From contig JAVJQW010000007.1 in NCBI GenBank assembly GCA_040218735.1, positions 1 through 64,000 of the forward strand: a stretch of 64,000 nucleotides of DNA. The letters run 5' to 3'. The notes under the pieces were generated by a model that was not told the DNA's origin, searched no databases, and saw only the letters and a program-made list of their open reading frames with translations. The position numbers and the translations under genes were made by a program. Below are positions 32,148-42,231 of the stretch, piece after piece. The stretch is from Deltaproteobacteria bacterium (GTDB lineage Bacteria > Myxococcota > Kuafuiibacteriia > Kuafuiibacteriales > Kuafuiibacteriaceae). The number at the start of each line of letters is the position of its first letter. The first letter of the stretch is position 1.

Positions 32148-35045
32148 CTAGCGACCAATGAGGCTATCCACGAGCACGCGGAGGACCTGGACGTCGTACG
32201 GCTTCTCCAGCCGGTGGTGAGGGACGGAGCGCAGGAACGTCTGAACCCACGGCGTGAAGATCCCTCCCGTGAGGAAGATCGTCCGCTCGGCCAACTCGGG
32301 GTAGCGGCGCTGCACCTCTTCGAACAGCTCGACGCCGTTCGTGCCGGGCATCATGAGGTCGCAGATCAACACGTCGAACGGACCGTCCTCCTCCAGTCGA
32401 ACCAACGCCGTCTTGGCGTCCAGAGCCCCCACCACACTGTGACCCATCGCGAGCGCGCGTTCGGCGGAGCGAAGCACGATCGGCTCGTCGTCGACGACCA
32501 GCACTTTGCCTCGGCGCGCCTGCGCCACGACGGGCTCCGGCTCCGACGTCGGTGTCTCGGCGGAGGGCGCGAGCGGAAGTTTGACCCGGAACGTCGTCCC
32601 GCGCCCCAACTCACTTTCGAACGTCAGCTCCCCGTCCAACGACTTGACGATGCGTTGGCAGATGGAGAGGCCGAGCCCCGTTCCCACACCTGAGGGTTTC
32701 GTCGTGAAGAAGGGCGTGAAGATCCGCTTTCGAACCGACTCCGGAATACCTTCTCCCGTGTCGGTGACCTCCACGATGAGACGCTCGTCCTGCTCGAACG
32801 CCGATACCGTGATCGCGTTCTCCTCGTAGTGACCGCGCGGGATGGCATGAGCTGCGTTGATGACGAGGTTCAAGAAGACCTGACTCAGTCGCGCCTCGTT
32901 CCCATAGGCCGGCGGCACGCCGTCGTATCGTGTGACCACGCGCGCGCGCTGCCGCACCTCGTTGCGCGCGACACGCAGCGTCGAGTCGAGGAGACGAGGG
33001 ATGTCGACCGGCTCGCGTCGTTCCTTCTCGACCCTCGAGAACACCTTCAGGTCCCGAACGATGGTGCGAATCCGATCGCCCGCGTCACGGGCGTCGACGA
33101 GGGCCTCGACGATCTCCGGGGACACCGGTGCTTGCTCCGATATCCGCTCGAGCTCACCGACGGCGAGCTCGATGTTTACGATGAGCGCCTGCATCGGGTT
33201 GTTGATCTCGTGGGCGACGCCCGCCGCCAGCAGTCCGACCGAAGCCATTCGATCCGCAACGATGAGTTTAGCGTCGGTGGCCTTCTTCTCGGTCACGTCG
33301 CGCGCAATGACGACCACTCCGGCTCGTGAGTCCTCCTGCGCAACGGGCGCCATCTTGATCCAGTAGATGACTTCCTCGCCGTCGTCTCGGGCGTACGCCT
33401 CTTCCCAAGACTGAGCCTCGCCGGTCTCCACCACGGCCTGCAGGCGTTCTCGCATCTCGGCCGCCTCGTGCCCCACCTTCAGTCCGAGCAGATCACCGTC
33501 CTTCACGATGACTTCGTCCGGCGCGGAGGTCCGCGACACGTAGCGAACGAGCCCCTCGCGATCCACGAAGACCACGATGTCCGGGGCGTACTCGAGCACC
33601 GCGTCCAAGAAGGCGGTGCGCTCGCGCGCGACCTTCTCCGCACGCTTTCGCTCCTCGAACGCCGCCCCGAGCGCCAGGACTTGGGCGATCTGGTTGGCAA
33701 TTGCGCGCGTAAACGAGGACCACGTCGATCCCGAGAGCTCGCTGGTCCGCGAAAACATCGCGAGCACACCCAAGGCCTCGCCCACGTAAGTGAGGGGGAT
33801 GAGTAGAGCGCTACATGTTTCGCTGCGGCCGAGCACGTCCTCGGCGACCGCCGGATCGATGTCCTCGGAGGGGAGTTGAATGGACTGCCCCGTGCGAAAG
33901 CACCGTTCCACGAGCTCGGGGTGTCCGAACAGCGTGTCACATTCGTCGGCGTCCCATTCACGGGCGCCCACGATGGAACGAACCGACAGCGCGTCTCCTT
34001 CGCGTAGATAGAGCGCACCCAGCGAGATGCTCCCGGCGTCGAAGCACGCGGCGAGCGCCTCGTCGAGCGCGACGTCGAGCCCCCGCTGGCCGAGGACCAA
34101 CTCCGAAACGTTCGAGAGGATGGCCAGCTCCGCGGAGAGGGTCGTGCACCGCTGCGACAGGTGGCTGTTCAAGAGGACCTGCCGCTCCAGCTGGCTCACG
34201 ACGCGGTGGAGTCGGTCTTGATCGAGCGATGACTGCGACGGCGTCACATTCGGCGGGGGTGACCGCAAGGCGTCCTCGAGCGCGCGTAGCACCTGCGACA
34301 ACGAGGGCGTCCTCACGACGAGGTCGACGGCTCCCGAGTTCTTGGCGAGCTCGCGATCCGCATCTGCGGTGTAGCTCGAAGTCACCAGCAGCACCGGTAT
34401 CTTGCGGTGAGCGTCGCTCGACCGGATGGCGTAGGCCATCTCGAACCCATCACAGCGCGGCATCATCACGTCCGCGACCACGGCGTCGACATCGCGGTTC
34501 CGCACGATCGAGAGGCCCTCGGCGCCGTCGCTCGCGGTGAGCACGTCGAAGCCGACTTGCTCCATGCTGATCCTGAGGAGCTTCAGTTGAAGTGGGTCGT
34601 CGTCGACGACGAGGACCGTCTTGCCCGCCCCGAAGGGGCAGCCGTCCACGTTCCCCCGCAAGCGAGCATCGACGATCGATGCGAGCCGTCCTGGATCGAC
34701 CGGCTTGCCCACGACGTCGTCGAAGCCGGCCGCCGCCAGGCGCCCCTCCTCGAAGTTCGAAATCATGCTCGAGAACGCGATGATCGTGGTGTCCGCGCCG
34801 CCCTTCGAACGCAGCGGTGCGACGAGCTCGAATCCATCGAAGTCGGGGAGGATGAGATCGAGGAGCACGAGGCGAGGTTGGTGTTGCTCCATGAGACTCA
34901 GGCCGGTCGCGCCGTCGGGAGCCTCCAAGATGTGGTAGCCCTGCTCCGCGAGCGCGAACGCAACGAGCTTGCGGGTGGTCGAGCTGTCGTCGATGCAGAG
35001 GATCTCTCGAGCATCGCCTCGGTTGGAGTCTTCGGTGAGGCTCAT
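32148..35045 (-). CDS. Multi-receiver hybrid histidine kinase (REC-REC-GAF-PAS-HisKA-HATPase-REC)
   Basis: Three REC domains, H-box 'AHEINNP', 'NLVINA' and 'FFTTKPSGVGTGLGL'. Confidence 0.93.
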   Translation of the reverse strand: MSLTEDSNRGDAREILCIDDSSTTRKLVAFALAEQGYHILEAPDGATGLSLMEQHQPRLVLLDLILPDFDGFELVAPLRSKGGADTTIIAFSSMISNFEEGRLAAAGFDDVVGKPVDPGRLASIVDARLRGNVDGCPFGAGKTVLVVDDDPLQLKLLRISMEQVGFDVLTASDGAEGLSIVRNRDVDAVVADVMMPRCDGFEMAYAIRSSDAHRKIPVLLVTSSYTADADRELAKNSGAVDLVVRTPSLSQVLRALEDALRSPPPNVTPSQSSLDQDRLHRVVSQLERQVLLNSHLSQRCTTLSAELAILSNVSELVLGQRGLDVALDEALAACFDAGSISLGALYLREGDALSVRSIVGAREWDADECDTLFGHPELVERCFRTGQSIQLPSEDIDPAVAEDVLGRSETCSALLIPLTYVGEALGVLAMFSRTSELSGSTWSSFTRAIANQIAQVLALGAAFEERKRAEKVARERTAFLDAVLEYAPDIVVFVDREGLVRYVSRTSAPDEVIVKDGDLLGLKVGHEAAEMRERLQAVVETGEAQSWEEAYARDDGEEVIYWIKMAPVAQEDSRAGVVVIARDVTEKKATDAKLIVADRMASVGLLAAGVAHEINNPMQALIVNIELAVGELERISEQAPVSPEIVEALVDARDAGDRIRTIVRDLKVFSRVEKERREPVDIPRLLDSTLRVARNEVRQRARVVTRYDGVPPAYGNEARLSQVFLNLVINAAHAIPRGHYEENAITVSAFEQDERLIVEVTDTGEGIPESVRKRIFTPFFTTKPSGVGTGLGLSICQRIVKSLDGELTFESELGRGTTFRVKLPLAPSAETPTSEPEPVVAQARRGKVLVVDDEPIVLRSAERALAMGHSVVGALDAKTALVRLEEDGPFDVLICDLMMPGTNGVELFEEVQRRYPELAERTIFLTGGIFTPWVQTFLRSVPHHRLEKPYDVQVLRVLVDSLIGR

Positions 35046-35437
35046 CTCATTTCCTGTCGGGGTGAAACACAGTCGAGGAACTCCCCGACGACGTCCAGAA
35101 AGGTGTTCGTGTCGATCGGCTTCGATACATACCCATCGCACCCGGCGGCGAGCGCACGGTTTCGATCACCTTTCATCGCTCGCGCCGTGACCGCAACGAC
35201 GACGATGTCTTCGGTGGCGGGATCCGACTTGAGTTGACGCGCCAACTCGAGCCCGTCCGCGTCCGGTAGCTGCAAATCTAGCAGCAGCAGATCAGGCCTC
35301 CGCGCGGCGATCATCCGCTTGGTCTCACGTGCGTCGGTGGCTCCGCCGACATCGTACCCACCGAGCTTCAAGAGGTAGGCCACCAGCTTCAGGTTGGCAG
35401 GGTTGTCGTCGACGACGAGGATGTAGGGCGTACTCAC
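35042..35437 (-). CDS. Single-domain response regulator (DivK-like)
   Basis: 'ILVVDDN', 'LLDLQLPDADGLE' and 'VTARAMKGDR...AGCDGYVSKPI'. Confidence 0.92.
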   Translation of the reverse strand: MSTPYILVVDDNPANLKLVAYLLKLGGYDVGGATDARETKRMIAARRPDLLLLDLQLPDADGLELARQLKSDPATEDIVVVAVTARAMKGDRNRALAAGCDGYVSKPIDTNTFLDVVGEFLDCVSPRQEMR

Positions 35438-35438
35438 T

Positions 35439-36899
35439 TCAGAGCACCTCGAGGACCGACGACTCGACGCGTCGCGGGAAGACGGCAAAGAAGGTGCAAC
35501 CTCGGTCGGGGTTCGGCCGTACACCCACGTGTCCCCCTTGCGCCTCTACGATTCGTTTCGTGAAGGCGAGCCCGAGGCCCGTGCCCTGGCGCCGCCGTGA
35601 TCGTCCCGCACCAATCTGCTGGAACTCGGTGAAGAGTCTTCCCAGGTCCTTGGGGTCGATACCGTCGCCGTCGTCTTCGACCTCGATGCGAAACGCGTCC
35701 GGTCCTTCGGGGAGGCTGCGCACGATCACTTGTCCTTCGCGCGCGGCGAACTTCAGGGCGTTGGAGAGGAAGTTGTAGAGCACCTGCGTGAGGCGTACTG
35801 CGTCGACGTAGACGCGAGGCACCTCATCCGAGAGCTCCGTCCGGACGCGCACGCGTCGTTCGGTCTCGGACGAGCGGAGGATCATGACGACTTCTCTGAT
35901 TGCGTCCCGCAGGTCGAGCTCCTCCGGATGGAACTCCATTCGGCCAGCCTCGACTTTGGCCAGGTCGAGGATGTCGTTGATCAGTCGCAGAAGGTGTCGG
36001 CCGCTCGAGAGAATGTCCCCGAGGAACTCACGGTATTCGGGCGCGTCCGGCGCGACCTTGCCGCTGTGAAGCAGCTGCGAAAATCCGATCACCGCATTCA
36101 GCGGCGTCCGAAGCTCATGAGACATGTTGGCCAGGAACTCACTCTTCAGGCGGTTGATCTCGTGCATGCGGTGGTTCTCGGCCTCCAGCTCGTTGGCTCG
36201 CCGCCGGAGCTCCGTCGCCTTCCGGGCCTCCGTGACGTCGCGGAGGGAAGCGAGCGAAGCGGGCTCCGACTTCCACGTCATGGGTACGACGCGCATCTCA
36301 CACACCCGCTCGCCGTCGCGTCGCGGGACCCCGACCTCGGTGGTGGTGCGGTCCTTCACCGAGAAGGCCATCGTCTCTCCGAGGAGCGCGCAACGCTCGA
36401 CTCCGAATAGATCCACCGCGGCCTGGTTGACGTAGCGGACCGTCTTGTCGGTACCCACGACCAAGATCGCATCGGGTGTGGTTTCGAGCAGCGCGGCGAT
36501 CTCGGCGTGACGCGCTTCGGCGCGGTTGCGTTCCACCACGTACAAGACACACCGCGAGAACAGCCAGCTGTTCGCCTCCTCTTTGGACAGGACCTCGGCG
36601 GCACCCTCGGCCCGGAGCTCGTCGCGCAGGTCGGTCCTTGCGGCACCCGAGACGACGACCACGGGCACGTCCTGTGCGGCGGCGCGAACCCGTCGGAGTG
36701 TGTCGACACCGCGCGAGTCGGGGAGGTCGAGGTCGAGGAGGACCGCGTCGAACATCGAGCGTTTCAGCTGCTCGGTGGCGTCCGCGAGCGTTTGACTGAC
36801 ACACATGTCGACGACGGCGGCTGGCGACTCGTCGAGCCACTCCCGCGCCAGGTCGGCGTCACCCGGGTTGTCCTCGACGAGGAGAACGTGGAGGTTCAC
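35439..36899 (-). CDS. Hybrid histidine kinase (REC-PAS-HisKA-HATPase)
   Basis: 'LLVEDNPGDA', 'LLDLDLPDS', PAS 'PDAILVV', 'MSHELRTPLN', 'SNALKF' and 'GTGLGL'. Confidence 0.92.
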   Translation of the reverse strand: MNLHVLLVEDNPGDADLAREWLDESPAAVVDMCVSQTLADATEQLKRSMFDAVLLDLDLPDSRGVDTLRRVRAAAQDVPVVVVSGAARTDLRDELRAEGAAEVLSKEEANSWLFSRCVLYVVERNRAEARHAEIAALLETTPDAILVVGTDKTVRYVNQAAVDLFGVERCALLGETMAFSVKDRTTTEVGVPRRDGERVCEMRVVPMTWKSEPASLASLRDVTEARKATELRRRANELEAENHRMHEINRLKSEFLANMSHELRTPLNAVIGFSQLLHSGKVAPDAPEYREFLGDILSSGRHLLRLINDILDLAKVEAGRMEFHPEELDLRDAIREVVMILRSSETERRVRVRTELSDEVPRVYVDAVRLTQVLYNFLSNALKFAAREGQVIVRSLPEGPDAFRIEVEDDGDGIDPKDLGRLFTEFQQIGAGRSRRRQGTGLGLAFTKRIVEAQGGHVGVRPNPDRGCTFFAVFPRRVESSVLEVL

Positions 36900-36901
36900 G
36901 A

Positions 36902-38422
36902 CTACTCCTCCGGGTTGAAGAGTCCGCCGATCCGCGTCAGCTCGTCGAGTGCGACCTGTTGCGGGAAGCCAGAGAGGATCCCGGAGATGTTCCGGAACGG
37001 CTTGCCGATGTGCATGCCCTCTCCGTCGATCGTGAACTCTCGGATGTCCTTGTCGTGCATCGAGCCACGCATCTTCAGGACGGTGAGCCCGCGACGCATC
37101 TCCCCGAGCATCTCCACGTACCGCAGCAGGATGATGGAGTCCGTGATGGTCGAGATGTGCGCTTCGGTGACCGAGCTCCCGCCGAGCAACGTGGGCGTCG
37201 TGGCGGTGAAGAGCCCGCCGATCTCCTTGTGTTTGATGAACGACGTGATCCCGATGACGAACTCGCGATAGCCCTTGAGCGAAGAGACACGCTCCAGCGC
37301 GGAGAGGCTGTCCACGGCGATGCGGTTCGGCTTGAACTTGTCGATCGTCTTCTTGATGCGGATGAGGTGGTCCTCGAGCCCCATCGCTTCCGGGTACAGA
37401 CAGACGACCTCGAGGAGCCCGTCGCGTTCCATCTGCTCGAAGTCGACGCCCCACCCGGTCGCGTTGCGGAAGAGCTGATCGCGACTCTCTTCGAACGCAA
37501 AGAGCAGGCAGCGCTCACCCTTCGCGGCACCTCCCTCGATGAACTCCGTGCACATCAACGTCTTGCCGCAGCCGGTCGCGCCGGTGACGAGGATGATCGA
37601 GTCGCGAAAGAAACCGCCGCCGCACATCTTGTCGAGCTCGTCGTTTCCGGACTGGATGCGAATGTTCGAGGAACCCTGCTTCAGCTCCATGGCCGAGAGG
37701 GGGATGACGACGATGCCTTCCTGCGGAATCACCGTGAACGGATACTCACCTTTTTGGTGAGGCGTTCCGCGAAACTTGAGCGTCTCGATCGTTCGCCGTC
37801 GCTTCTCGTCCTCGAGGATGTTGCGAAGGACGACCACGTTGTCCGCGACGAACTCCTCGACGCCGAAGCGACTGATGTCTCCGTACTCATCCCGCCGCTC
37901 CGCAGTCATCACGGACGTGACGCCGAGCTGCTTGAGTGCACTCGCGATTCGGAAGAGCTCACGACGAACGATTGCGGCATCCGAGAACTGCGTGAAGATG
38001 GCGCCGAGTGAGTCGAGCGACACGCGCTTGGCGTTCGTGCGGCGAACCGCATGCTCGATGCGCGTCATCAGCGCCCCGAGGTCGTAGGCACCCGTCACGA
38101 CGATCTCCTCGGGTTGAGGTGATGCATCGACGAAGGCCCACATGCCCTCCGCCTCCCAGCTCGGGATGTCCCAGTCGAGCCCCAACATGTTGCGACGAAT
38201 GTCGCCCGGGGGCTCCTCGAAGGTGACGAACACGCCGGGTTCTCCGCGCTTGACGCCCTCCGCGAGGAACTGCGCCGCGAAGATGGTCTTCGCGCTACCT
38301 GCGGTCCCGGCCACCAGAGTGGTTCGTACTTCCGGCAGCCCTCCTTCGGTGATCAGGTCGAGGCCGGGGATGCCGGTCTCGAGCTTCTGAACGGGGGCAC
38401 GATCGATGGTGGAAGATTTCAT
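36902..38422 (-). CDS. kaiC: Circadian clock protein KaiC (double RecA-like domain)
   Basis: CI Walker A 'GTAGSAKT', CII Walker A 'GATGCGKT', catalytic 'FEE' in both halves, phosphosite context 'HISTITDS' and C-tail '[12 protein letters not shown]'. Confidence 0.97.
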
Positions 38423-38721
38423 GAGCGCTCCTCGTATCCGCCCGTCGGGCTCGGCTGAAGGTCCAGGCCCAGCAGGACCTTCTCGGTGTCCGATAGGTCG
38501 CCGATGATTCGTCGCAGGGGTAGCGGGAGCGACTTGATGAGCGTCGGCGTCGCGAGGATCCGCTCGTCCTCCGCGAGCTGCGGCCGTTCGATGATGTCGA
38601 AGACCTGCATCTCGTACTTACCTTCGAGCTCGACGCGACAAATGCGCTCGAGGTTTTCGATCGCTCGTTCGGAACGCGGCGTATTACCGGTGATATAGAG
38701 TTTCAAGATGAACCGATTCAT
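38419..38721 (-). CDS. kaiB: Circadian clock protein KaiB
   Basis: '[15 protein letters not shown]', '[32 protein letters not shown]...VLLGLDL'; ATGA overlaps on both sides. Confidence 0.96.
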
Positions 38722-39587
38722 GAACCAACCCCCATGGTTCGGGTGACTCGAGTTCGGTAGAACGAGACGAGATCGCCCATGAGCTCTAGGAGGACTAGAC
38801 GAGCCTCCTCGACGTACGCCGTAGCCCGTGCCGCCGTGCAGTTCGCGATCAGCGAACGCACCGCGAGCGTGTGAATTTCGATGACGTCTCGGGGGCTGCT
38901 CCGCACGAAGCCAAGGCGGTCCGAGAGCTCCAGTACTGCTCCGTGATACTCGGTGGTCTCTTTGTGGACGCGATGCTCGAGGGCCATCTCGAGGATTCGC
39001 GCATAGTCCTCGATCGCCCGCTCGAAGGCCTCCGGCGCGGTGTCCCGGAGCCGCCCCGCGGCGTAGAGCTGCGCGGTGACCGCCGTGCCTGGATCCCTCG
39101 AGAGCTCTTCGATCCCGGCGATCTCCTCGTCGCGTCGCTCGCGCTCTCGCGTCTGCTCCAGCTCGCGCTGCAGACGCGCGCGCTCGAGCGCGTAGCGGAT
39201 CGCGCGCGACAGCAGCGAGGCATCCAAGGGCGCCTTCGGCACGTAGTCTTGTGCGCCACGCTCGACCGCGTCGCGGCCCAAGGCTTCGTCGCGTGGTGAG
39301 CTCACCAGCACGAGGACCGGCACCTGCGGGGCGCACGTGTGGAGGCGCGCGAACGTGTCGAGGCCGCTCGAATCGGGCAGCTCGAGACCGAGGAGCACCA
39401 GCTCGAAGCGGCGGTCCACCAGGGCCGTGATGGCCTCGGCGAGGGTCTCCACGCTCGTGATTTGCCAGGAGGTGAAGGCCTCACGGCACGTCTGCTCGAC
39501 GCTCGCACGGTCGTGGGCGACGCTCTCGACGAGCAGGATCTCCGCCGTCTGGGTTTCTTCGTTCCCCCGGTTGTTCAGCCCGGCCAC
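38718..39587 (-). CDS. KaiA3-like protein (degenerate receiver plus KaiA-like C-terminal helical domain)
   Basis: N-terminal REC fold. The C-terminus '[20 protein letters not shown]...[22 protein letters not shown]' resembles, from memory, the KaiA3 (Sll0485) family. Coupled to kaiB. Confidence 0.8.
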
Positions 39588-39677
39588 GTCGAGAGTGTCG
39601 ACGCTATCGGGGGATCTCGGGAGTCGCGAAGGTGCCGATTCTCTGTCAGGAAATTGCCGACGCGCGTGTCCGCAGTG

Positions 39678-40310
39678 TCACTCGACGACGCCGTTCTGGA
39701 GCGCATAACGCGCGATATCGACGTAGGAGCTCAGCCCGGTCTTCTCGCGGATGCGGGCCAGGTACGTGGCTACGGTCTTCTCGCTCAACGAGAGCTCCGC
39801 CGCGATCTCCTTGAGCGCCCCGCCCAGCGCGATGCGCCGAAAGATGTCGAGCTCTCGGGGGGAGAGTGACTCGTGCGGGAGGCTCGGTGGCGGCTGGCCG
39901 ATCGACTTGGCCACGGCGTTGGCGGTCTCCGGGTGCAGATACTTACCGCCGCTCGACGCCTGCTCGAAGGCCTCGACCAGGTCTTCGGCCGCGCGGTGTT
40001 TGTGGAGGATCCCGTTCGCTCCGGCCTGGAGCGTCTGCACCACGTACTCGACCTCGGTCAGCGCGGTCAGCACGAGGATCGGGACCTCTTCGTAGCGGCT
40101 TCGAATCGTCCCGATGAGCTCCACGATTCCGCGGCCCGGCATCATGATGTCGAGGATGATGCAGGTCCACGCATGGGCGTCGAGCACCGCGAGCACCCCG
40201 GTCTCGTCTTCCGCTTCGTGGACCTCGATGTCTTCGAACGCGTCCGCGATCGTCTCGCGCACACCTCGGCGCGTAATCGCGTGGTCGTCGGCCACGAGCA
40301 CGTAGCGCAT
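39678..40310 (-). CDS. NarL/FixJ family response regulator (REC-LuxR HTH)
   Basis: 'VLVADDHAITRRG', 'LDIMMPG' and 'LSPRELDIFRRIALG...IAAELSLSEKTVATY'. Confidence 0.95.
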   Translation of the reverse strand: MRYVLVADDHAITRRGVRETIADAFEDIEVHEAEDETGVLAVLDAHAWTCIILDIMMPGRGIVELIGTIRSRYEEVPILVLTALTEVEYVVQTLQAGANGILHKHRAAEDLVEAFEQASSGGKYLHPETANAVAKSIGQPPPSLPHESLSPRELDIFRRIALGGALKEIAAELSLSEKTVATYLARIREKTGLSSYVDIARYALQNGVVE

Positions 40311-40312
40311 CG

Positions 40313-41812
40313 TCAGCTCCTGTCCTGCCAGGGCACGGTCACCCGAACGCGAGTGCCCGTGGGTTGGGATCGATCGATGGATGCCGTGCCGCCCAGGCCT
40401 TCGGCCCGCTCCCTTACGCCGAGGAGGCCGAGTGAACGAGGTGAGTCGATCAGGGCTTCGTCGATCCCGACGCCGTCGTCGGCAACGACGAGCTCGAGCT
40501 CGTCATCACGCCGCTTCAGCGTGACGTACACGTTCTTGGCCACCGCGTGTCGGGCGACGTTCGTGAGGAGCTCCTGAAGGACGCGGAACAGCTCCGTCTC
40601 GATCTTGTTTCGTGGACGACCGAGCTCTGCGATCTCGAGGCTGACCTTCGTTCGCGCGCGACTCTCGAAACGCCTCGCTTCGTCGCGCACGGCGGCGGCC
40701 AGACCAAAGGAGTCGAGCGCCGCGGGGCGAAGGCGCGCCGCGATTCCGCGCACGGCTTCCGCCATCTCGTCGGTGAGCGCCGACGTCTCGTGCAGTCGGA
40801 CATCGACCTCGCTCGGGATCTTGGAGCCGCGGAGGTGCCGCTCGATCCACTTGAGGTCCATCTTGATCGCCGTGAGCATCTGACCGAGGTGATCGTGGAC
40901 CTCGCGCGAGAGGCGGGTCTGCTCTTCCTCGCGGATCTCGTTGAGGCGCTTCGTCAGCGCGCGCATTCGCTGCTCTCGGTCGACGAGCTCGGCGTTGCGT
41001 CGTCGCACCTCGCGACCGCGCCGTTCCAGCTCGGTGATGTCCCGGCAAACGATGGTGCGTCCGTGGACCTTGCCGTGTTCATCGCGCAGCGGAGTCACCG
41101 CGACGGAGGCGGTGATCTCCTCGGAGCGTCGCGCGATCTGAATGACGTCCTTGACGACCGTCGATCCGTTGAGACGTTGGGCCGCAGCTGCGACCTCACG
41201 AAGGCCCACCACCTCGGCGCGCTCCGACGCGAGCTCTTCGATGGGTTTGCCCACGGCGGTCGCGCTGGGGATGTCGAAGAAGCTCTCGGCGGCGAGGTTC
41301 CAGCTCGTGACGATCCCGTCGACGCTCGTACTCAGGATGGCGTCTGCCGTGCTGCCGACGAGCGAACCCATGAGTGAACGCACACGCTCCTCACGCTTCC
41401 GTGCGCTCGACTCACCCATCCGGGCCATCGCGAAACCGAGCGCCCGCGTCAGGTTCTCGATCCCGACGTCGTTCTTGGAGATGTAGTCCTGAGCGCCCTC
41501 CGTCAGGCACGCGAGTGCGAGCGCCTCGTCCTCGAGCGCGGTCAACACGAGGATCGGGGTGTTCGCGGCGACTCTGCGTATCGCCCGAACACACTCGATG
41601 CCCACGCAGTCCGGGAGGCGAAGGTCGAGGATGATGGCGTCGACCGCCTCGTCTGCCAGAACCGCGTGAGCGGCCTTCATCGTCTCCGCACGGAAGATGG
41701 GGAGCTCGATGTCCGGGGCGTCCTCCTCCAACAGGCTGACGATGTAGTCGGCGTCGCCGGGGTTGTCTTCGACGATGAGGAGGCGAGGGACCTTGCTCTC
41801 GAAGCGCCTCAC
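40313..41812 (-). CDS. REC-PAS-HisKA_3 sensor kinase (NarX/UhpB type)
   Basis: 'LSREVHDHLGQMLT', 'QELLTNVARHA', 'DDGVG' and 'GLLGVRERA'; N-terminal REC. Confidence 0.93.
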   Translation of the reverse strand: MRRFESKVPRLLIVEDNPGDADYIVSLLEEDAPDIELPIFRAETMKAAHAVLADEAVDAIILDLRLPDCVGIECVRAIRRVAANTPILVLTALEDEALALACLTEGAQDYISKNDVGIENLTRALGFAMARMGESSARKREERVRSLMGSLVGSTADAILSTSVDGIVTSWNLAAESFFDIPSATAVGKPIEELASERAEVVGLREVAAAAQRLNGSTVVKDVIQIARRSEEITASVAVTPLRDEHGKVHGRTIVCRDITELERRGREVRRRNAELVDREQRMRALTKRLNEIREEEQTRLSREVHDHLGQMLTAIKMDLKWIERHLRGSKIPSEVDVRLHETSALTDEMAEAVRGIAARLRPAALDSFGLAAAVRDEARRFESRARTKVSLEIAELGRPRNKIETELFRVLQELLTNVARHAVAKNVYVTLKRRDDELELVVADDGVGIDEALIDSPRSLGLLGVRERAEGLGGTASIDRSQPTGTRVRVTVPWQDRS

Positions 41813-42231
41813 GGGAGCCTCGCGACGCCGAGCCAGAACGACTGGATCGAGCGAACGGCGGCTTCGAACTGTTCGAGCCCGACCGGCTTCGTGACGTAGC
41901 AGTTGGCCCCCAACGCGTAACTCTCCGCGATGTCCGGCGCCGCGTCCGACGAGGTCAGCACGACGACGGGCAGCCGCGCGAGCGTCGGGTGCGCTCGAAG
42001 GTGCGCGAGGACGTCGTGCCCGGACTTACGGGGGAGGTTGAGATCGAGGAGCACGAGATCAAACGCCTCCTGGGCGTCGTTGGCGCTCGCTTCGAGCTTC
42101 GCGATCGCATCGATGCCGTCGATCGCGATCGAGAACGCGAGTGTGGCGTCACCGTCGCGGAGTGTCTCTTGCGTGAGGTCGACGTCTCCCGGGTTGTCTT
42201 CGACGAGGAGGATGCGACGGAGTTGGTTCAT
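41809..42231 (-). CDS. Rcp1-like single-domain response regulator
   Basis: 'ILLVEDNPGD', 'LLDLNLPRKSG', 'VLTSS' and 'SYALGANCYVTKP...FW'. Confidence 0.92.
   Translation of the reverse strand: MNQLRRILLVEDNPGDVDLTQETLRDGDATLAFSIAIDGIDAIAKLEASANDAQEAFDLVLLDLNLPRKSGHDVLAHLRAHPTLARLPVVVLTSSDAAPDIAESYALGANCYVTKPVGLEQFEAAVRSIQSFWLGVARLP

Follow-up and report, generated by a model that had tools for sequence, protein, structure and literature searches.

The 64,000-nucleotide stretch of DNA analysed here (hereafter the window; positions 1 to 64,000 of contig JAVJQW010000007.1 in GenBank assembly GCA_040218735.1, from a bacterium of the myxococcotal family Kuafuiibacteriaceae) carries, directly upstream of kaiB and kaiC, a gene for a KaiA3-type protein in which a receiver domain is followed by a long linker helix and a KaiA-like C-terminal domain. 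The receiver contains Gly in place of the phospho-accepting Asp and has also lost the metal-binding second residue of the acidic pair and the conserved Thr. The protein probably functions as a phosphorylation-independent activator of KaiC, which would form dimers through its KaiA-like domain and which, having lost its His–Asp input, would keep the receiver and be regulated indirectly.

The receiver domain and its active site

In the 289-residue protein, the only family recognised by Pfam was PF00072 (Response_reg; residues 17-126, E 1.7e-11, 44.7 bits vs. a cut-off of 30.2); no other Pfam family, KaiA included, matched at E <= 0.01, and NCBIfam returned weak partial matches to the receiver domains of many regulators. 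A Foldseek search with the whole protein likewise gave receiver matches only, with a top E of about 2e-7. The receiver domains were aligned by hmmalign to a receiver profile built from the first seven homologues, and the residues of the active site were read from this alignment together with the translation of single codons. The MAFFT alignment used for the tree places V95 in an insertion column and, therefore, the Thr column was taken from the hmmalign alignment. The gene, its receiver and the residues concerned are the following:

38718..39587 (-): KaiA3-type gene, from the list of open reading frames (ORFs); 289 aa from a start codon GTG; a receiver connected by a long helix to a KaiA-like C-terminal domain
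39222..39542 (-): receiver domain, here a pseudo-receiver, aa 16-122; (beta-alpha)5 topology complete
39525-39527 (-): E21, first residue of the acidic pair, codon GAG
39522-39524 (-): S22, second residue of the acidic pair (metal-binding acidic residue lost), codon AGC
39387-39389 (-): G67, position of the phospho-acceptor Asp at the end of beta3, codon GGT
39375-39377 (-): P71, D+4, codon CCC
39363-39365 (-): G75, D+8, codon GGC
39303-39305 (-): V95, Thr/Ser position at the end of beta4, codon GTG
39300-39302 (-): S96, T+1, codon AGC
39243-39245 (-): Y115, K-3, codon TAC
39234-39236 (-): K118, conserved receiver Lys, kept (DYVPK), codon AAG

The active-site set thus reads E-S / G / V / K, with three of the five receiver positions lost, and is not that of a canonical phospho-accepting receiver. 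A preliminary description of this DNA, made from the letters alone, had placed the change from Asp to Gly in the codon GGT at 39389-39387, and the minus-strand reading and codon translation show its coordinates and motifs to be correct; the acidic pocket ES, the loss of the conserved Thr and the retention of the Lys of DYVPK, also claimed there, correspond to E21-S22, V95 and K118 in the hmmalign alignment. The same description held that the neighbouring receivers keep the Asp, and this is the case for all nine other receiver domains of the window, which come from seven neighbouring ORFs and have Asp at the acceptor column in the hmmalign alignment. By sequence, the domain is a pseudo-receiver, or aspartate-less receiver, as had been proposed: the receiver fold is recognised, and three residues are gone from it, namely the acceptor Asp, the Thr and the second, metal-binding member of the acidic pair.

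The AlphaFold2 model, computed from a 74-sequence alignment, has a mean predicted local distance difference test score (pLDDT) of 91.2 and a predicted template modelling score of 0.70, the receiver block ranging from pLDDT 88 to 98. According to DSSP, the receiver of the model comprises b1 (16-20), a1 (24-37), b2 (42-46), a2 (49-58), b3 (63-67), a3 (76-85), b4 (91-95), a4 (99-109) and b5 (114-117), with G67 as the last residue of beta3, V95 as the last of beta4 and K118 just past beta5, which are the structural places expected for the acceptor, Thr and Lys positions.

Authenticity of the glycine codon

The codon GGT is one base away from an Asp codon, and the evidence on it comes from assembled contigs of four runs rather than raw reads, which leaves some room for a single-base sequencing or assembly error (GAT to GGT). 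Run X1 is identical to the window and, as its possible source, was not counted as independent. In run X2, which belongs to a different study, contig record 5 matches the window without a single difference over 39099-39497. A 25,240-base contig of run X3, which belongs to a third study, departs from the window by 84 substitutions and one insertion over 1501 bases (roughly 94% identical), and the differences listed include none at 39387-39389. This contig, which differs from the window at 84 other bases, seems to encode P0003, a protein 97-98% identical to that of the window that also has Gly at the acceptor position; the link is the length of 25,240 bases, which is also that of the longest contig of P0003, from the same source collection. 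Since X2 is identical across the codon and P0003 has Gly as well, a one-base error is very unlikely and was rejected as the source of Gly67; the change of two further active-site residues also speaks against it. The GGT codon, whose confirmation had been called for in the preliminary description, is hence borne out by the X2 contig, and the Gly by P0003.

Close relatives and the order of the changes

The residues at the five positions differ among the relatives of the protein, being E-S / G / V / K in P0003, E-G / D / V / K in P0004 (68-70% identical) and E-D / D / T / K in P0005 (53-61% identical) and in more distant members. P0004 is encoded in a genome of the same genus (G011), where the order kinase, NarL-type regulator, KaiA3-type gene, kaiB and kaiC is as in the window. 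As P0004 keeps the Asp without the second acidic residue or the Thr, and P0005 is canonical, the loss of the Asp is young, stepwise and nested among Asp-bearing relatives. Judging from these sequences, the changes at the second acidic position and at the Thr predate the split of the two species, and the Asp was lost later, in the lineage of the window. The preliminary description had reasoned that close homologues with Asp would reduce the Gly to a lone mutation, and in this respect the evidence is divided: the closest homologue from a separate species, P0004, does have Asp, whereas P0003 has Gly.

A quick maximum-likelihood tree was made from 85 full-length receiver-bearing members, with Shimodaira–Hasegawa-like approximate likelihood ratio test (SH-aLRT) values as the only support; 14 of its 82 inner branches were starred and its backbone is weak, and the acceptor column was kept in as one of 290 columns. 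The window protein and P0003 group with P0004 at an SH-aLRT of 100, and P0005 follows. The labels Asp and non-Asp require at least seven changes on this tree, at least five of them forced by starred branches. Moreover, Asp-less members are found in the cyanobacterial clade, far from that of the window, namely L003 (Phe) and P0008 (Glu). The tree therefore agrees with the earlier proposal that the Asp was lost independently of canonical KaiA and of the other Asp-less members. It does not agree with the idea, also put forward there, of an evolutionary intermediate between KaiA3 and KaiA, which was rejected on the position of the Gly form in the tree: this is a young tip among the Asp-bearing P0005 and P0004, with no deep branch between KaiA3 and KaiA.

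Loss of the acceptor aspartate in the wider family

When the C-terminal 140 residues were searched against 1.84 billion cluster representatives, 1411 proteins matched at E <= 0.001 and 880 at E <= 1e-10. The survey of active sites covered the best 150 of the 1411 representatives and the close relatives of the window protein, 156 proteins altogether, with genomic context left out. The receiver profile recognised a receiver domain in 101 of these proteins, or in 100 when the cluster of the window is counted once, and 98 domains have a residue at the acceptor column. This residue was Asp in 88 and another in ten (G, C, A, R, Q, E, P and N once each and S twice). All five active-site residues were found in 66 of the 98 receivers, and in 22 the Asp was kept with another of the five lost (22 of the 88 Asp-bearing receivers).

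L003 (336-1256), which comes from an unclassified metagenome-assembled genome (MAG), reads TA / F and has no acidic pocket, yet it is followed by kaiB and kaiC; it is a second kai-linked Asp-less case, independent of that of the window. Asp-less KaiA3 orthologues of Pleurocapsa and Microcystis are already reported by Köbler et al. (2024, PMC11372060), and Maule et al. (2015, PMC4395418) put the share of receiver domains without the Asp at about 4%. Loss of the Asp in the KaiA3-type family is thus recurrent and already published, and what is new here is a young, lineage-specific case.

In two cyanobacterial KaiA3-type proteins, L004 (5860-6747) and L005 (5953-6852), the Asp is kept and Leu stands in the Lys column of the tree alignment; their beta4 ends read IIVEMD and IIAYSQ. 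Given the missing Lys and the altered end of beta4, Asp-bearing cyanobacterial KaiA3 receivers may themselves be catalytically atypical.

Linker helix, C-terminal domain and identity of the protein

The remainder of the protein consists of two parts:

39099..39221 (-): alpha5/linker helix, aa 123-163 (helix in DSSP), which joins the receiver to the C-terminal domain
38721..39092 (-): KaiA-like C-terminal helical bundle, aa 166-289, with the near-invariant motifs PRDVIEIH and ELMGxLxxYR and a predicted dimer interface

The linker is the segment most conserved with respect to the same-genus orthologue (81% amino acid identity). When a profile of 23 C-terminal domains was compared with PDB sequences, the best matches were marginal ones to KaiA (1v2z, E 0.0045; 1q6a, 0.0067; 5jwr, 0.021), which accounted for eight of the 24 rows. 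A model of the C-terminal domain alone (pLDDT 88.4) gave no Foldseek match at E <= 0.001, with KaiA ranked first as a weak match (E 0.16-1). In VIA-align, the top six structures were all KaiA (Z 11.1-12.2, root mean square deviation (rmsd) 2.3-2.8 A over 90-101 aligned residues), followed by the N-terminal domains of the stressosome protein 3zta (Z 10.5) and of RsbR (2bnl, Z 8.9), with that of RsbU (1w53) at Z 5.8; in helical bundles, a Z of less than about 13 may lack specificity and is not decisive alone. Nevertheless, the sequence matches, the gene context and synteny, and the VIA-align result all point the same way, to a KaiA-like C-terminal domain.

A homodimer of the protein scored 0.56 in modelling vs. 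0.00 for the best control and passed a threshold that 20 of 30 solved homomers, but only 1 of 23 solved single chains, also pass. The contacts agree between runs to at least 68%, with a pLDDT of at least 76 for the partner. The predicted interface is formed by residues 229-235 and 263-282, within the motifs PRDVIEIH and ELMG..YR. This result may reflect likeness to the solved KaiA dimers and is not independent proof of dimerisation.

Full-length matches of tblastn, spanning residues 11-49 to 278, were obtained at 33-36% identity with Cyanothece (L004), Rivularia (L020) and a cyanobacterial MAG (L005), the full-length similarity to these genes amounting to 33-38% identity, and kaiB follows in all three. 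The order KaiA3-type gene, kaiB and kaiC is found in seven of ten full-length loci of other genomes, those of Cyanothece sp. BG0011, Rivularia, an Anaerolineaceae MAG, two Gammaproteobacteria MAGs, Lamprobacter and one unclassified MAG; another locus, that of the cyanobacterial MAG, has the KaiA3-type gene followed by kaiB only, and the other two have neither gene within the flank. The KaiC of the window is 73% identical to that beside the KaiA3-type gene of Cyanothece sp. BG0011, 70-73% identical to those beside the KaiA3-type genes of Cyanothece, Anaerolineaceae and Gammaproteobacteria, and 60-73% identical across the loci compared; assignment to the KaiB3/KaiC3 subtype draws solely on this 60-73% identity of KaiC to KaiCs beside cyanobacterial KaiA3-type genes. 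The combination of a receiver with a KaiA-like C-terminal domain, in this synteny, was named KaiA3 by Köbler et al. (2024, PMC11372060). With its receiver fold, its KaiA-like bundle, its place upstream of kaiB-kaiC and its full-length homology to cyanobacterial orthologues, the protein is of the KaiA3 type, and its first identification as KaiA3-like stands.

Among the 156 sampled proteins, 55 have no receiver match. The domain scan covered 38 of these, 17 shorter than 250 aa being left out, and 35 of the 38 carry PAS, GAF or MEDS domains and three nothing recognisable; this suggests that the C-terminal domain is generally driven by an N-terminal sensor. Some proteins with this domain have up to five PAS domains, and the domain is a widespread output module.

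Selection on the protein and origin of the kai cluster

Ratios of nonsynonymous to synonymous substitution (dN/dS) were obtained by the Nei-Gojobori method between the window gene and its same-genus orthologue in G011; with a dS of 0.8-1.1, near saturation, they are rough, and amount to 0.33 for the receiver (16-122), 0.17 for the linker helix (123-165), 0.18 for the C-terminal domain (166-289) and about 1 for the N-terminal tail (2-15). On this sequence comparison, the receiver is somewhat relaxed compared with the rest of the protein, yet still under purifying selection.

In 20 genomes of the order (a single family, with the host genome included), the query with the C-terminal domain matched three, strongly only in the host and in G011; the match in the third genome, G013, is weak, at 31% identity, similar to the orphan paralogue described below. 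Among these 20 genomes, a kai-linked KaiA3-type gene was found only in the host and G011. Together with the 73% identity of KaiC to that of Cyanothece, this distribution suggests that the whole kai cluster may have been acquired horizontally.

Gene organisation and neighbourhood

The KaiA3-type gene is surrounded by at least three histidine kinases and several receivers, in a window with a GC content of 66.6% and a host genome of 11.6 Mb. The neighbouring genes are:

38419..38721 (-): kaiB, 100 aa; NCBIfam KaiB NF006798 at E 1.7e-33, Pfam KaiB at E 1.5e-27
36902..38422 (-): kaiC, 506 aa; NCBIfam KaiC NF006799 at E 1.9e-219, 729.5 bits
35439..36899 (-): ORF of the downstream hybrid histidine kinase, receiver E-D-D-S-K; the kinase part was recognised in the translation
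39678..40310 (-): upstream NarL/LuxR-type response regulator (receiver and GerE helix-turn-helix); Pfam Response_reg at E 1.2e-21 and GerE at E 2.5e-14; D-D-D-T-K, canonical Asp
40313..41812 (-): upstream hybrid kinase with receiver, PAS, HisKA_3 and HATPase_c by Pfam; receiver E-D-D-T-K
35042-35524 (-): single-domain receiver downstream of the kinase; D-D-D-A-K, i.e. Ala at the Thr position
32148-35141 (-): 997-aa hybrid kinase adjoining the single-domain receiver; three receiver domains, all with Asp

The stop of the kaiA3-like gene and the ATG of kaiB overlap as ATGA, the stop of kaiB (38419-38421) overlaps the start of kaiC (38420-38422), and a start scan found a candidate GTG start of the downstream hybrid kinase 2 nt past the kaiC stop. 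From this arrangement, the genes from the kaiA3-like gene to the downstream kinase (35439-39587, minus strand) look like one operon, ending in a possible output kinase. The NarL-type regulator gene lies 90 bp upstream of the kaiA3-like start. A consensus scan of 36700-42000 found 0 promoter-like sites and four terminator-like sites vs. 2.2 expected, the sigma-70 consensus used being uninformative for a GC-rich host.

The host genome has only one kaiC (match at E <= 1e-10). Elsewhere it carries an orphan gene of the KaiB family (G000:C42:388996-389232, minus strand, locus L084), whose 59 bits lie above the Pfam cut-off, and a KaiA3-type paralogue of 283 aa (L082:1483-2334, minus strand, in G000:C59), with a C-terminal domain of the same kind at 30% identity and a fully canonical receiver (E-D / D / T / K). 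This paralogue stands apart from kaiB and kaiC, next to the gene of a repeat-rich secreted protein that contains CxxCH motifs.

Comparison with known Kai systems

The KaiA3 of Synechocystis sp. PCC 6803 (Sll0485), part of the KaiA3-KaiB3-KaiC3 oscillator, is described in PMC11372060 as having, like the window protein, a NarL-like receiver and a KaiA-like bundle, and both genes lie directly upstream of kaiB, with kaiC next; the likeness to Sll0485 is one of description, the sequence comparison having been made with the orthologues of Cyanothece, Rivularia and the cyanobacterial MAG. However, the Synechocystis protein retains the acceptor Asp, as stated in the preliminary description and given as D65 in PMC11372060, whereas the window protein has Gly and two further active-site losses, and its host is not a cyanobacterium. 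Five non-cyanobacterial genera are listed with KaiA3 orthologues in the same paper. The Asp-less KaiA3 proteins that it reports from Pleurocapsa and Microcystis share with the window protein a receiver fold without phospho-acceptor; the comparable Asp-less L003 (Phe) and P0008 (Glu) differ from it in the replacing residue and represent independent losses.

Canonical KaiA of Synechococcus elongatus (PDB 1R8J, 4G86 and 5N8Y) also has an N-terminal receiver-like domain without the Asp. Its C-terminal four-helix bundle superposes on the C-terminal domain of the window protein (Z 11.8-12.2, rmsd 2.7 A, 99-101 residues) and its gene, too, precedes kaiB-kaiC; dimerisation through this domain is predicted for the window protein. 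Nevertheless, the two C-terminal domains are only 13-18% identical, and the window protein lacks both the match to the KaiA family profile and the form of pseudo-receiver that mark canonical KaiA: according to PMC11372060, the KaiA pseudo-receiver has no alpha4, whereas the window receiver belongs to PF00072 and has alpha4 at 99-109 in the model. As the full receiver topology and the D+4 Pro, D+8 Gly and K-3 Tyr are kept, the likeness of the receiver to that of KaiA goes no further than the absent Asp. Thus, the shift toward a KaiA-like pseudo-receiver that had been suggested holds as far as the Asp is concerned, and fails with respect to alpha4 and the complete (beta-alpha)5 topology.

Asp-less receivers are reported to act often constitutively or through non-phosphoryl inputs (PMC4395418, PMC12632262). 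Typical bacterial pseudo-receivers, as characterised in the review PMC12632262, are depleted in the D+4 Pro, the D+8 Gly, the K-3 Tyr and the Lys, whereas the window receiver keeps all four, which, at the level of residues, is consistent with a very recent origin of this pseudo-receiver.

Proposed working of the protein and alternative explanations

In the favoured explanation, the switch Thr and the second, metal-binding residue of the acidic pair were lost in the ancestor of the genus, and the acceptor Asp was then lost in the lineage of the window, by a change from a GAT-type codon to GGT. The resulting receiver would be unable to accept a phosphoryl group from a histidine kinase and would be kept as a folded, selected structural or allosteric module, connected to the output domain by the long helix and transmitting no His–Asp signal. 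The protein would dimerise through the KaiA-like C-terminal bundle and stimulate the adjacent KaiC constitutively and independently of phosphorylation. Residual control would probably be exerted through the amount of the protein, e.g. by the upstream kinase and the NarL-type regulator, or alternatively through sequestration by KaiB, as in other Kai systems.

This explanation is in line with what is reported for Synechocystis, where recombinant, presumably unphosphorylated KaiA3 stimulates the autophosphorylation of KaiC3 and supports an in vitro oscillation with KaiB3 (PMC11372060), which implies that the core activity of KaiA3 does not need phosphorylation of the receiver. Moreover, the dosage of KaiA3 is described in the same paper as setting the level of KaiC3 phosphorylation in vivo, and the review PMC12632262 describes pseudo-receivers that are active constitutively and whose abundance is determined by an adjacent two-component system.

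Several points weigh against a phosphorylation-independent activator. The retention of Lys118, Tyr115 (K-3), Pro71 (D+4) and Gly75 (D+8) makes the domain more receiver-like than typical pseudo-receivers, and these switch-type residues, which fit a recent change, would equally suit a domain in which the switch machinery is still at work. In addition, a dN/dS of 0.33, rough as it is, is clearly not neutral and, thus, the receiver must still do something, possibly active sensing. The stepwise functional story is itself drawn from residues only, and the gap between the NarL-type gene and the kaiA3-like gene showed no promoter-like site with the sigma-70 consensus, which is uninformative in this GC-rich host.

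The possibility of active sensing leads to the foremost alternative, a rather doubtful one already raised in the preliminary description, in which the Asp-less receiver would be a neofunctionalised sensor of a small molecule (e.g. oxidised quinone), of the redox state or of a partner protein, and would pass the signal on through the linker helix, as in KaiA. The purifying selection on the receiver, the retention of Tyr115, Lys118 and features of the beta3-alpha3 loop, and the PAS, GAF or MEDS domains of 35 of the 38 scanned non-receiver members fit such a function, as does the binding of quinones by the pseudo-receivers of KaiA and CikA near beta3-alpha3 / alpha3 or alpha1-beta2, reported in PMC12632262. 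However, neither a ligand pocket nor a Cys pair nor a cofactor motif is evident in the receiver, and its replacements (Asp to Gly, Asp to Ser and Thr to Val) are those of simple loss, with no new conserved feature. The change is also very young and absent from the same-genus orthologue, and alpha4 is kept, unlike in the KaiA pseudo-receiver as described in PMC11372060.

The substitutions might, instead, be drift toward the loss of the domain or the gene, if the His–Asp input, or the receiver altogether, was no longer needed once the kai cluster had been acquired. The restricted occurrence of the kai-linked copy (host genome and G011; three of the 20 genomes of the order with any match, G013 weakly at 31%), the 73% identity to cyanobacterial KaiC that fits horizontal acquisition, a dN/dS in the receiver about 1.8 times that of the C-terminal domain, and the 22 of 88 Asp-bearing receivers of the family without another active-site residue would all suit such decay. 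It is nevertheless unlikely: the ORF is intact in the window, P0003 and P0004, the dN/dS of 0.33 is well under 1, the receiver block is modelled with very high confidence (pLDDT 88-98), and the translational coupling to kaiB is kept.

It is less probable still that the receiver is phosphorylated on another residue (e.g. Asp72 or a Ser/Thr) or that, as a dead receiver, it binds a neighbouring kinase as decoy or modulator. The kinases and receivers in the neighbourhood and the pseudo-receivers listed in the review PMC12632262 as interacting with two-component partners would accommodate such wiring, but Asp72 is the family-wide residue of the LPD motif at D+5 and no acceptor position, the metal-binding pocket is damaged as well (S22), and there is no direct evidence for it.

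Implications for KaiA3-type clocks

A kinase acting on the conserved Asp of KaiA3 was proposed in the 2024 paper (PMC11372060). In the family sampled here, losses of the Asp are repeated and independent (10 of 98 receivers, with a further 22 of 98 missing another catalytic residue) and, hence, the His–Asp input looks dispensable for the core function and seems to have often been dropped.

A more far-reaching idea, offered only tentatively, is that one genus has been caught in the act of converting a KaiA3-type activator from a phosphorylation-controlled receiver to a KaiA-style, phosphorylation-independent pseudo-receiver. The sister species would then represent the stage in which the Asp is accompanied by a crippled metal pocket, and the lineage of the window that in which the Asp is lost, with the operon common to both. 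If this were true, the pair would retrace the path along which canonical KaiA came to have its pseudo-receiver, and the role of receiver phosphorylation in KaiA3-type clocks could be tested by swapping three residues.

The locus does not reveal a new kind of system, and its interest lies mainly in this within-genus pair and in what it may tell about the input of KaiA3-type clocks: an Asp-present and an Asp-absent receiver, provided by nature in one genus and in the same operon, offer a means to test the effect of receiver phosphorylation on the stimulation of KaiC.

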